Part shown: piece by piece, positions 28,931-32,600 of the stretch
How the letters are laid out: each line of letters begins with the position of its first letter
Position numbering within the stretch: position 1 is the stretch's first letter
From: a virus
Lineage: Duplodnaviria > Heunggongvirae > Uroviricota > Caudoviricetes
IMG/VR virus record: IMGVR_UViG_2563366848_000001
Length of the DNA stretch: 36,138 nucleotides
Strand: one strand, 5' to 3'
Position numbers and translations under genes: made by a program
Notes under the pieces: model-generated
What the model was told of the DNA's origin: nothing
The model's input: only the letters and a program-made list of their open reading frames with translations
Databases searched by the model: none

Positions 28931-31432
28931 ATGTCGGTACCGAATCAGACCCCCTATATTATTTATAACGCCAACGGTCTGACGACCGTTTTTCCCTTTG
29001 AGTTCTACATCATCAGCGCCAGCGATATTCAGGTGAGTCTTAATGGTACGCCTGTTACTACTGGATTTACTGTGTCGGGAGTGGGTAACGTTAGCGGTGG
29101 TGATCTTACGTTTTTAACCCCACCTGCTAACGGCACGGTTGTTATGCTGGAACGTGTTGTTCCTACCTATCGCCTGACTGATTACCAGGACAATGGCGAT
29201 CTGCTGGCAGATACCGTCAATAAAGATTTTGACCGCCTCTGGATGGCTATCCAGCGTTCTTTTATTTATCTCGGACTGGCGTTACGTCGCCCGTTGCTTG
29301 GAGGACCGTTTAACGCAGAAGGGTATCGCATATCCGGCCTTGCGGATCCGGTTAATGACCAGGACGCAGCAACCAAAAAATACGTGCAGGAGGTCGGGCA
29401 GACCAATCTTAACAGGGCATTGCGCGTGCCTGAAAACTACGTGGCACCGCTTGCACCAGCTGAGCAGCGTGCAAACAGATTACAGGCTTACAATGCTGAG
29501 GGTGCTCCGATATTTGTTCGTCCAGAGAGTGGTAGCGCTGCTGATGTTTTGGTAGATCTCGCGAGCACCGATAGCGGCAAGGGCGATGCTCTTATCGGGG
29601 TAAAACAGCCATATTCTGGATCTGTGGGGCGTACACAGCATGATAAAAACGCCGACACACTGAGCGTAAAAGATTTCGGGGTCAGGGGGGATGGTTCGGA
29701 CGAGAGCGCGGCTTGGGCTTCTATGATATCCAACCTACCTTCCGGGTGTACCACTTTGCACGTTCCGCAGGGGAATTATGTTTGCAATACACCAATAGCT
29801 TTAGTGTGGGCGAAACTCCCAACACTGGTTGTGGACTCCGAGGCAATCTTATCACCAGCAGTATCGTTCTCGGCATTCCTTAATGTCCAGTATCGTAAAC
29901 GAGATGAGACCAAATTTGGGGCTGGCGTTGTTTCGGCAGGTACCACTACTAACTCAGGGGGATTCAAGGTCGGTGGTGGGGCTTTAATGGATTCAGGTGA
30001 CGGTATGTTTTTATCATCTGATGGTCATGCAAATTGGATGCGTATTCAGACTAGTAAAAATTACAATCCTTCAGAAGTGGTTGTATACGGCTCTGCTGCA
30101 CAAGGTCAACTAGTCCACCAATCACAAAATATTCTGGTCAGAGAGGGTGGCTCTTTATTCGACTTAGATAAGTGGTCAGTAGGCGATGCTATATACGCAT
30201 TTGAACGGGCGCTGGTAATTACTGCATTAACCTCAACAGGGCAGATTTCCGTAACAGAAATAGGCGGCGGGGATCTTACTGCGGCAGTGGGTACGCACTC
30301 AAAATTCCATTATGTGTACACCACTGGTGGTGGCATTTGTGACGTGATTAACGGTGTTTGCACCAGAACGTCAGGGGACCCGTTTTTTTTCTTCGGTTAC
30401 GGTAGTGGAGCCTATAAATTCTGGCTGAACGGTACGCTACGCACTGTTGTCAGTATTTCAAATAACGGCAACACCTGTAATTTACAGGACACGTCTATAA
30501 ATGCTACAGGCGCAACATATAAAATTCGTGACGATATTGGGGCGCAGATAAGTACGATCCGCGTGCAGAAGACTACGGGGGCTGATGAAGAAAATCTCAG
30601 TATATCTGCAAAAGCGACTGGTGAATACGAGATTAGAGCCGGTATAGCTGGCAACGGATACTATTACCCCATACGGTTCTACAATGGTGATGATGGGGCC
30701 TATAAGCCACATAAAGTTATGGAGATAACACCAGGCGGGCTTGTTGGGGTAATGAATACGGGAGGAACACCAAGGGCATTATTTTCTGTAGATAATAAAA
30801 CAAATATTCCGCTGTCAGATTCAACGTTGAAAACATCAGCAATATTTAGATCTTCATATAATGATGGTGGTAGAGAGTTACAGTTTGGATGTTTAAGCAA
30901 CTCTGGTTCTAATGGCGGTTTTATTCAGGGTAGTGATTCATCAGGTAATAACTACCAGGTAGTTATTAACCCACGCGGTGGTAATGTTGGGGTTAACACT
31001 GATAATCCAATATTTCCTCTTGATGTTAATGGGGCATGTGGTCCCCATATTGACAATACTTACACACTTGGAAACTCTTCAAGGAGATGGGCTAGTGTAT
31101 ATTCAGCAGGTGGCGTGGTTACTACCTCTGATGCACGCCAGAAAACTGAGATTGAACCATTTACTGATGCCGAGATTGCAGCATCCCAGGAGCTTGCATT
31201 AGGCGCAGGTACTTTCCGGTGGCTCAAGGATTGCCGAGACTTTGGCGAGCAGGCGGGGGTTAACATTGGGTATACCGTACAGCATGTCATGAAGGTAATG
31301 GCTAGACACGGGCTTGATTACAGAAAGTATAAAATGATTGAGCATGATGTAGAGGCCGACACATACGGATTAAACTACGACCAGATAATCGTTTTTGTCA
31401 TGGCGGGTATCGTCGCGCGATTGACAAGATAA
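28931..31432 (+). CDS. tail fibre/tailspike with T7 gp17-like N-terminal adaptor and C-terminal self-cleaving intramolecular chaperone (S74-like) domain
   Basis: 833 aa; conserved N-terminal about 150 aa; C-terminal SDARQKTEIE motif typical of the autoproteolytic chaperone domain; central part has lower GC. Confidence 0.8.
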   Translation: MSVPNQTPYIIYNANGLTTVFPFEFYIISASDIQVSLNGTPVTTGFTVSGVGNVSGGDLTFLTPPANGTVVMLERVVPTYRLTDYQDNGDLLADTVNKDFDRLWMAIQRSFIYLGLALRRPLLGGPFNAEGYRISGLADPVNDQDAATKKYVQEVGQTNLNRALRVPENYVAPLAPAEQRANRLQAYNAEGAPIFVRPESGSAADVLVDLASTDSGKGDALIGVKQPYSGSVGRTQHDKNADTLSVKDFGVRGDGSDESAAWASMISNLPSGCTTLHVPQGNYVCNTPIALVWAKLPTLVVDSEAILSPAVSFSAFLNVQYRKRDETKFGAGVVSAGTTTNSGGFKVGGGALMDSGDGMFLSSDGHANWMRIQTSKNYNPSEVVVYGSAAQGQLVHQSQNILVREGGSLFDLDKWSVGDAIYAFERALVITALTSTGQISVTEIGGGDLTAAVGTHSKFHYVYTTGGGICDVINGVCTRTSGDPFFFFGYGSGAYKFWLNGTLRTVVSISNNGNTCNLQDTSINATGATYKIRDDIGAQISTIRVQKTTGADEENLSISAKATGEYEIRAGIAGNGYYYPIRFYNGDDGAYKPHKVMEITPGGLVGVMNTGGTPRALFSVDNKTNIPLSDSTLKTSAIFRSSYNDGGRELQFGCLSNSGSNGGFIQGSDSSGNNYQVVINPRGGNVGVNTDNPIFPLDVNGACGPHIDNTYTLGNSSRRWASVYSAGGVVTTSDARQKTEIEPFTDAEIAASQELALGAGTFRWLKDCRDFGEQAGVNIGYTVQHVMKVMARHGLDYRKYKMIEHDVEADTYGLNYDQIIVFVMAGIVARLTR

Positions 31433-31448
31433 ACTTTGATTAGTAAAG

Positions 31449-31491
31449 CCTCTGGGGTATGATTTCCTTAGTAAAAAGCATACTCCAGAGG
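31449..31491 (+). promoter_or_regulatory. hairpin overlapping the SD of the acyltransferase gene
   Basis: 13-bp imperfect inverted repeat CCTCTGGGGTATG..CATACTCCAGAGG (12/13) with 17-nt loop; 3' arm contains the GAGG SD. Confidence 0.45.
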
Positions 31492-31496
31492 ATTTG

Positions 31497-32600
31497 ATGA
31501 AAACCACAGTAAGGATTGAAGCGCTCGACGGTCTTCGCTTTATGGCATTTATGATGGTGATGTTGTACCACTACTTGTTCGCTGGGCCTATCTCAGGCTT
31601 CCTACCGAAAGAGTTAACAGTTAATGCCTTCTATTTTGGGGACTTTGGTGTTGATTTATTTTTCATTATAAGTGGATTTGTAATATCACTTTCATCAGTT
31701 GGAAGAACACCTGTTGAATTTATTAAGTCAAGGATTAATAGGATAGTACCCACCTTTATAATATTTGGATTTATAGTTTTAGTGTTTCAGTGCTTTATAC
31801 CAATGGTTGATTTTAAGGAAAGGATTGTTTCTTTATTCTATAGCTTTACGTTTTTCCCCCAAGTGTTCGGATATCATTTTTTTAGCGATATCTATTGGAC
31901 AATTCAGAAAGAGGTGACATTTTATATATTGGTTTTCATTATGATGTTATTTAACCTTTGGAGTGGTTACAGAAGGGAGATTTGCTTTGCATGGCTGGTG
32001 ATTTCATACAGCAATCAATTTTTAATCCATTCTAGCTTTGTTGATGCGCTATTTATAACTGAACATGCCGGTCATTTCATTGCAGGGATAGTAATATATG
32101 ACATAATGAAAAATAAGCCATCTCCTTTTGATTTCGTCTTGATGGTTCTTAGTGTGATCCTCATATATAATAGAATGTTGGGTTTTAATTCATATGTAAA
32201 TGGAAGTTTTGGGTATTCAGTTTCTGATGCATCTCTTCTGCTCGCATGTATCTCTCTTGTTACGTTAACCTGGTGTGCATCTAACGTATCTGAAGTCGGT
32301 AAGTTTTATAATGTTGTTAAGTTTCTTGGGGCGATGACATACCCACTGTATTTAATACATGCCGATATCGGATTTTGGTCTCACGCTATGTTTGAAAGGA
32401 AGTGGTGGGTTGAATATCCGGTTACGAAGACTTTTGTTAACTATGAGGTGACGATAGTTATTTCGATGTTAATATCGTTTACTATTGCAGCGCTGTACAT
32501 AAAGCTTCTGGATAAAAAAGTAACACGCGCCTTTAATAAAATATGGGGCCTGTTCGGCTTGCTAAGCCATAAAAAAATTAAAGGGTTAAATACACCCTAA
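31497..32600 (+). CDS. acyltransferase family 3 membrane protein (O-antigen acetylase-like), low-GC moron
   Basis: 367 aa, multiple hydrophobic helices, N-terminal LDGLRF..FF pattern typical of acyltransferase-3; markedly AT-rich versus flanking phage genes. Confidence 0.8.
   Translation: MKTTVRIEALDGLRFMAFMMVMLYHYLFAGPISGFLPKELTVNAFYFGDFGVDLFFIISGFVISLSSVGRTPVEFIKSRINRIVPTFIIFGFIVLVFQCFIPMVDFKERIVSLFYSFTFFPQVFGYHFFSDIYWTIQKEVTFYILVFIMMLFNLWSGYRREICFAWLVISYSNQFLIHSSFVDALFITEHAGHFIAGIVIYDIMKNKPSPFDFVLMVLSVILIYNRMLGFNSYVNGSFGYSVSDASLLLACISLVTLTWCASNVSEVGKFYNVVKFLGAMTYPLYLIHADIGFWSHAMFERKWWVEYPVTKTFVNYEVTIVISMLISFTIAALYIKLLDKKVTRAFNKIWGLFGLLSHKKIKGLNTP

Follow-up and report, generated by a model that had tools for sequence, protein, structure and literature searches.

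A low-GC acyltransferase gene beside a mosaic tail fibre in an Escherichia coli prophage: likely cargo for surface-polysaccharide modification

The tail fibre and acyltransferase genes

The viral record IMGVR_UViG_2563366848_000001 (Caudoviricetes) consists of 36,138 nucleotides (nt), the whole of which is referred to here as the window, and contains a temperate, podovirus-like prophage of about 33 kb whose host is Escherichia coli. At 28931-32600 a tail fibre gene is followed by a gene for a membrane protein of the acyltransferase-3 (AT3) type, and these two genes, together with the exchangeable slot in which the second one lies, are the subject of this analysis. The features of the locus are:

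28931-31432, plus strand: tail fibre, 833 amino acids (aa)
28931-29650, plus strand: N-terminal virion-attachment part of the fibre (T7 gp17-type adaptor), aa 1-240, conserved across the prophage lineage
29651-31126, plus strand: receptor-binding part of the fibre, aa 241-732, exchanged, of tailspike type
31127-31432, plus strand: C-terminal intramolecular chaperone of the fibre (Peptidase_S74), starting from Ser733 in SDARQK
31433-31496, plus strand: spacer between the fibre and AT3 genes, carrying a weak sigma-70-like site and the ribosome-binding site AGAGGA
31497-32600, plus strand: AT3-only membrane acyltransferase, a cargo gene of low guanine-plus-cytosine (GC) content, 367 aa, with an ATG start that agrees with RefSeq
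31423-32640, no strand: exchangeable cargo segment, replaced by gtrCBA in the sister prophage L092
32641-32725, plus strand: conserved right border of the slot, a GTCAGGATTCCGACC box and a hairpin over the holin ribosome-binding site and start codon (32712)

A sequence-only reading of the window had placed an AT3 gene at 31497-32600, and both its coordinates and its identity were borne out. The product matched Pfam family PF01757 (Acyl_transf_3; E=8.6e-24, 84.6 bits against a cutoff of 31) over residues 9-332, equivalent to model positions 2-325 of 326, and also PHROG 3333, 'O-acetyltransferase' (1.4e-35). The two motifs described as essential in AT3 proteins, R/K-X10-H in transmembrane helix 1 and RXXR in cytoplasmic loop 1 (PMC9558356), were present as R14-X10-H25 and R79-I-N-R82. 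For a family with about 10 transmembrane helices, a crude Kyte-Doolittle hydropathy scan gave 7 peaks above 1.5, two of which overlapped, leaving at least 6 distinct strong segments. PF01757 was the single Pfam domain and an SGNH domain was absent, so that the protein is 'AT3-only' like Oac; its gene also has the placement of an Oac-type gene, that of an AT3-only protein of a temperate phage encoded between the fibre and lysis genes, and lies about 1.3 kb upstream of the integrase gene. The resemblance to phage O-antigen acetylases that had been claimed for it was seen again as 26% identity, over 92% of the length, to the O-antigen acetylases of the Salmonella phages g341c and BTP1, as well as in the name of the PHROG family. 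NCBIfam held a named equivalog for neither the AT3 nor the fibre, and a sequence search of the PDB gave no solved relative of the AT3.

Outside the prophage, the closest relatives of the AT3 were chromosomal genes of O-antigen/lipopolysaccharide (LPS) clusters, with 50-71% identity. In Klebsiella pneumoniae, a 67%-identical homologue closes a wzm/wzt O-antigen cluster and adjoins rml/ugd/gnd genes; another, 71% identical, adjoins the same WsaF-like and 675-aa genes (glycosyltransferases) as in Klebsiella; homologues of 60-64% identity adjoin GT8 LPS-type glycosyltransferases, and two were found in unrelated contexts. These contexts place the AT3 among the polysaccharide O-acyltransferases, with the O-antigen most plausibly the acceptor class and any particular acceptor sugar putative. 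The chromosomal genes concerned, which include wbaK of Salmonella group E1 and the gene at the Klebsiella wzm/wzt end, share the AT3-only architecture and low GC of the window gene, but the latter is carried by a prophage and lies outside the O-antigen cluster. Moreover, the Klebsiella cluster belongs to an ABC-transporter pathway, whereas both E. coli hosts of the prophage have Wzx/Wzy clusters. E. coli is not known to have PatB. Peptidoglycan O-acetylation was set aside as the activity of the gene, since AT3-only proteins can carry it out only together with an SGNH partner, for example PatB (PMC9558356).

The fibre was examined against 75 related prophages from Enterobacterales, Pseudomonas, Acinetobacter and Betaproteobacteria, obtained by a terminase-based scan with one genome per species. 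Its N-terminus matched PF03906, the T7 tail fibre N-terminal domain, at aa 8-153 (E=3.4e-11, 43.5 bits against a cutoff of 25.2), and by tblastn aa 1-210 were present in nearly all of the 75 (52-79% identity in Enterobacterales), as expected from the earlier claim of a conserved T7-like N-terminus; this part would dock the fibre on the tail. It was also 38% identical to the tailspike N-termini of phiV10 and SPN1S. Beyond the first 150-210 residues the fibre was unmatched in those relatives by tblastn. From aa 241 onwards it was 79% identical to a 726-aa E. coli tailspike with a P22 head-binding N-terminus (P0131), in agreement with the receptor-binding exchange that had been suggested, and the receptor-binding part was 73-77% identical to free tailspikes of 626 aa, one of which came from a lytic T7-like contig that encodes a separate 250-aa T7-tail adaptor. 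The same receptor-binding module thus occurs on virions of three kinds. At the junction lies the motif SVKDFGVRGDG (aa 245), which is the N-cap in pectin-lyase-like beta-helices. A match to the Sf6 tailspike covered residues 212-284 (E=2.4e-10), and profile matches to the phiAB6 tailspike, pectin lyase, mannuronan epimerases and iota-carrageenase were confined to that stretch. PF13884, the Peptidase_S74 chaperone, was found at aa 733-795, and its C-terminal position, conserved serine start and resemblance in sequence and fold to the endosialidase or T5 pb1 chaperone identify a domain predicted to cleave itself off at Ser733 after trimer assembly.

The base composition of the fibre gene also differs between its parts, with 50.6% GC over aa 1-240 and 45.7% over aa 241-833, and troughs of 0.39 at aa 351-400 and 601-700. 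The lower GC that had been ascribed to the central region was therefore real, but the drop is modest, and it begins around aa 350 and continues nearly to the C-terminus. Identity to the sister prophages L092 and L094, taken in 200-nt windows, varied from 62% to 100%, showing that the gene is a mosaic on a fine scale. Taken with the comparative data, these results give good support to a fibre that combines a T7-type N-terminus conserved in the lineage with a receptor-binding part that has been exchanged.

An exchangeable cargo slot between fibre and holin

At 35.7% GC the AT3 gene was the minimum of the prophage (z = -3.7; 1104-nt windows over the remaining prophage had a mean of 55.8%, a standard deviation of 3.7 and a minimum of 43.0), and the statement that it is far more AT-rich than its neighbours was upheld. 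Since GC at third codon positions (GC3) was 0.37 in the AT3 gene against 0.57-0.76 in the neighbouring genes, amino-acid composition alone is not sufficient to account for this. None of the 75 terminase-sharing prophages carried a relative of the AT3 at E<=1e-5. The gene has the character of a moron, being an extra gene of deviant GC between genes that are adjacent in a relative (in E. coli 23GD11002 the fibre is followed directly by the holin). The chaperone-AT3 segment was 95-99% identical in nucleotide sequence between the window and L094, whereas the terminase genes were about 80% identical, which indicates a recent recombinational spread of the cassette.

A different explanation would be that the low GC is merely a codon effect of a very hydrophobic protein, and that the gene is old and vertically inherited in the lineage. 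The AT3 homologues were low in GC (27-39%) in every genome examined, which speaks for this explanation. The gene is nevertheless missing from all of the related prophages, gives way to gtrCBA at defined borders, differs from its neighbours in GC3, and is 96.7% identical at the protein level in a sister prophage whose flanks are only about 80% identical, so that we regard old vertical inheritance as most improbable; a purely compositional origin of the low GC was ruled out by GC3 together with gene presence and absence. That the AT3 gene is genuine foreign cargo, as the sequence-only reading had proposed in calling it a moron, is well supported by the comparative data: its absence from the relatives, the gtrCBA swap in L092 and its low GC all point that way.

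The borders of the cargo were defined by blastn against the sister E. coli prophage L092. Colinearity with the window (92% identity) ends at 31422, ten bases short of the fibre stop codon, and resumes at 32641. Between these points L092 carries gtrC-gtrB-gtrA in place of the AT3. The right border, the GTCAGGATTCCGACC box with its hairpin, was kept in E. coli, Trabulsiella and Enterobacter relatives; the hairpin had a minimum free energy of -35.2 kcal/mol (z = -3.83) and none of 200 shuffled sequences folded as well. Box and hairpin may be a regulatory element for late genes or the timing of lysis. In other members of the lineage the slot was occupied as follows:

Enterobacter sichuanensis: gtrA/gtrB and a different gtrC
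Trabulsiella guamensis: an unrelated 336-aa AT3, GC 35%
E. coli EC2 (L109): a different 384-aa AT3 on the opposite strand, next to a different fibre
Sodalis: an Ail/Lom outer-membrane protein
E. coli 23GD11002 (L110): empty, with the fibre followed directly by the holin

The variety of these surface-related contents marks the slot as a hot spot of cell-surface-altering genes. It is a cargo slot not previously described in this prophage lineage.

The fibre of E. coli 23GD11002 (L110 4222-6411; NZ_CM180093.1) was itself of note, as it couples a SASA sialate-O-acetylesterase domain to an N-terminus of the same T7 type. Its receptor-binding part presumably removes O-acetyl groups, the reverse of the chemistry of the AT3 cargo.

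Proposed function and its alternatives

The best comparative support for a functional pairing of fibre and glycan modifier came from a P22-like prophage with a related tailspike, in which gtrCBA lies directly downstream of the tailspike gene. From fibre aa ~248 through gtrA, this prophage and the dusA prophage L092 formed a single 4.6-kb alignment of 86.5% nucleotide identity, in which GtrC was 97% and GtrB 99% identical at the aa level. An uninterrupted block of this kind shows that the receptor-binding part and the neighbouring modifier moved together between unrelated phage lineages.

We consider it likely that the AT3 acylates a surface polysaccharide, in the first place the O-antigen, and that this would lead to serotype conversion and to exclusion of the same or related phages. 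The gene, acquired from the O-antigen/LPS-cluster acyltransferase pool of Enterobacterales, would be expressed from the prophage; its product would take an acyl group, probably acetyl, from cytoplasmic acyl-coenzyme A and pass it through the inner membrane to a surface-polysaccharide sugar, most probably one in the O-antigen repeat unit. The modified glycan would no longer be bound or cleaved by the phage's own fibre or by those of related phages, and the lysogen would be serotype-converted and protected against superinfection.

There is precedent for such a system. Oac of phiV10 is annotated as an O157-antigen acetylase giving superinfection immunity (PMC9558356, PMC11854483), Sf6 Oac blocks the Sf6 endorhamnosidase (PMC9558356), and prophage gtr genes diversify the O-antigens of the E. 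coli O77 group (PMC7685785). Like the window prophage, phiV10 (Uetakevirus) is a temperate E. coli podovirus, and in its genome fibre, oac, holin, endolysin, Rz/Rz1 and integrase follow one another; the two fibres have N-termini of one type (38% identity over aa 1-217), and phiV10 Oac is an AT3-only PF01757 protein of low GC (30.9%). phiV10 differs in having oac on the opposite strand, and in its virion and replication backbone, receptor-binding parts and integration site (dusA for the window prophage). Furthermore, phiV10 Oac is a tested O-acetylase that prevents adsorption of the phage itself, and it is reported to block phiV10 infection via O-antigen acetylation (PMC11854483), a role that is predicted for the window AT3. 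Sf6 Oac, and the GtrC/O-antigen acetylases of the P22-like Salmonella phages BTP1 and g341c, are likewise phage-borne acyltransferases encoded next to a tailspike and attachment region; the RXXR motif essential in Oac is present in the window AT3, and the receptor-binding part of the window fibre also occurs on P22-like tailspikes. Those phages belong to another lineage, however, and in the window fibre core the endorhamnosidase-type beta-helix was seen in the first rungs only.

Several observations weigh against the proposal and have to be set beside these precedents. In the E. coli strains B379 and STEC383 fibre and AT3 are 99.9-100% identical, yet the O-antigen clusters are unrelated. That of B379 is a Wzx/Wzy cluster of mannose type, with manC/manB, four glycosyltransferases and ISAs1 interruptions, and was common to just 4 of 5426 complete genomes; that of STEC383, a strain of serotype Onovel26:H30 and sequence type 710 (PMC8705337), is of rhamnose type (rmlBDAC). 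An identical fibre and AT3 are thus present in hosts that use unrelated genes to make their O-units, and no receptor could be deduced from the host O-loci, of which the two are unrelated and one is that of a novel serogroup without known structure. The pairing of fibre and AT3 also appeared loose, and strict co-inheritance was not upheld by the comparison: L094, whose AT3 is 96.7% identical in protein sequence, has a fibre core (aa 400-600) only 62-69% identical in nucleotide sequence, and L092 combines a 92% identical fibre with gtrCBA and not with an AT3. A domain search of the fibre centre, as the sequence-only reading had suggested, recovered the beta-helix-type matches at aa 212-284 but no confident glycanase or depolymerase fold in the core beyond the first beta-helix rungs. 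The AT3 proteins of the window and phiV10 had no significant pairwise similarity which, with the 26% identity to g341c/BTP1, makes the window AT3 a superfamily analogue and not an orthologue. Finally, AT3 proteins are also known to modify enterobacterial common antigen (ECA), capsules, peptidoglycan and secreted products (PMC9558356).

Part of this evidence would also suit an acceptor other than the serotype-specific O-antigen, on the surface or in the periplasm, such as ECA, LPS core, colanic acid, capsule, or a residue found in many O-units like the initiating N-acetylglucosamine (GlcNAc). An identical gene in two hosts with unrelated O-antigen clusters and the pairing of the AT3 with diverged fibre cores are both in keeping with this, as is the activity of the AT3-only proteins WecH on ECA and OacD on GlcNAc (PMC9558356). 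The benefit, independent of the phage's own fibre, would then be evasion of immunity or serum, or protection from other phages. On the other hand, the closest homologues lie within O-antigen/LPS clusters, the same slot holds gtrABC, which is known for O-antigen glucosylation (PMC7685785), and a place immediately after the receptor-binding gene recurs in phiV10. Another acceptor, and equally a benefit of this other kind, is thus possible but clearly the less probable outcome compared with O-antigen acylation.

The expression of the AT3 was considered separately. The gene is co-oriented with the late genes and starts 64 nt after the fibre, no terminator was predicted on the plus strand between the two, and the sigma-70-like site TTGATT-16-TATGAT at 31436-31463 (9 of 12 matches) was within the expectation from shuffled sequence. 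Because of this orientation, the missing terminator and a promoter-like site no better than chance, expression in the lysogen can only be assumed, and the same facts bring in the idea that the AT3 is mainly a lytic gene of the late operon, one that alters the receptors of the infected cell and of its debris and so keeps progeny virions from being lost to re-adsorption. The AT3 shares its strand with the fibre and lysis genes and follows a short spacer without predicted plus-strand terminator or convincing promoter, unlike oac of phiV10 and the AT3 of EC2, which are reversed. Yet the AT-rich cargo segment could hold a promoter of its own; the segment and upstream spacer are 95-99% conserved between sister prophages with flanks of about 80% identity (over 31400-31520, spanning the spacer, the window and L094 were identical at 120 of 121 positions); known phage AT3 genes work in lysogens (PMC9558356); and acetylation of newly exported polymer would probably be slow relative to the lytic cycle. 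We therefore judge a mainly lytic role to be improbable, and O-antigen acylation in the lysogen is retained as the preferred reading.

A wider and more tentative reading, which we think rather doubtful as a whole, would join these observations by making the slot a dedicated exchange site, bordered by the fibre 3' end with its chaperone domain and by the conserved box and hairpin upstream of the holin. Modules for receptor binding and cassettes for glycan modification would be trafficked between P22-like, T7-like temperate and lytic T7-like podoviruses, and AT3 acylation or Gtr glucosylation would be interchangeable partners of one receptor-binding type. The target might then be a glycan common across serotypes, given that hosts whose O-antigen clusters are unrelated share an identical fibre and AT3.

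The prophage, its hosts and the significance of the locus

The window was 100% identical to E. coli strain B379 and 99.9% identical to STEC383, and among the 5426 complete E. coli genomes the fibre-AT3 stretch was present in these two only; this E. coli prophage is rare. A nucleotide search of 50,697 phage records gave zero matches to the stretch, which is thus without a sequenced isolated relative at the nucleotide level. The exact AT3 protein was indexed in 187 blocks of public assemblies, and in all 25 of the contigs that were read (25/25) it adjoined the 833-aa fibre inside the same prophage, with dusA downstream of the prophage wherever the flank was shown. The remaining features of the element are:

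Replication module: SNF2 helicase, family A DNA polymerase, Enc34-type single-stranded-DNA-binding protein, DUF2800 nuclease, VapE primase
Repressor: S24/HTH
Structural module, T7-type: portal, capsid, tail tube proteins, internal virion proteins, terminase
Order after the structural module: fibre, acyltransferase, holin, lysozyme, Rz, then a tyrosine integrase divergent from dusA
33923-35011, minus strand: tyrosine integrase (PF00589)
Start at 35101, plus strand: dusA

The tyrosine integrase adjoins the 5' end of dusA, and integration at this site by such integrases has been described (Farrugia et al. 2015, PMC4482086). The dusA-associated prophages of that study resemble the window prophage in having a tyrosine integrase that is divergent from dusA and adjoins its 5' end, and in having relatives in Acinetobacter, Pseudomonas and Escherichia; they differ in that the words 'acyltransferase' and 'tail fiber' are absent from the text that describes them. 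At the left end of the window (1-1500) GC was low (36-43%), and the DUF2713 gene at 1-708 is presumably host DNA flanking attL. A search for att direct repeats (600-1700 against 34900-35400) gave as its sole result an imperfect match of 24-25 nt, at 1214-1237 and 35046-35070.

Some further observations were made on the prophage and its relatives. A gene for a GNAT-family N-acetyltransferase (20324-20812; PF00583, PHROG 1249) lies within the virion module, between a tail-tube-B-like gene and the internal virion protein genes. At 33691-33936 an open reading frame of 81 aa, in another frame, overlaps the end of Rz and runs past it; it is not annotated in RefSeq and had no Pfam match, but its hydrophobic N-terminus followed by cysteines makes it a candidate Rz1 (o-spanin). 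Among the sister prophages, L109 (E. coli EC2) and L094-L096 carry AT3 cargo; they adjoin pao/LysR genes and have no integrase after Rz, which indicates a lineage with at least 2 integration modules; in EC2 a tRNA-Thr gene and an integrase are at the opposite end of the element. In the O-locus of B379 (L098 8374-13904), copies of the ISAs1 family lie between galF and the first glycosyltransferase gene and also after wzx.

Systems of this kind are familiar among phages, and the finding is real but ordinary: the principle has already been established by Sf6, phiV10, BTP1 and the Gtr systems, and no new question is opened by it. If the proposed function is correct, the AT3 would be one more prophage determinant of surface-antigen variation in E. 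coli, encoded outside the O-antigen cluster and hence invisible to in-silico serotyping based on wzx/wzy, with an effect on phage susceptibility and possibly on antibody recognition. Receptor-binding parts and glycan modifiers that travel together, or are swapped in a single slot, help to predict which hosts temperate podoviruses can infect and which phages they exclude.

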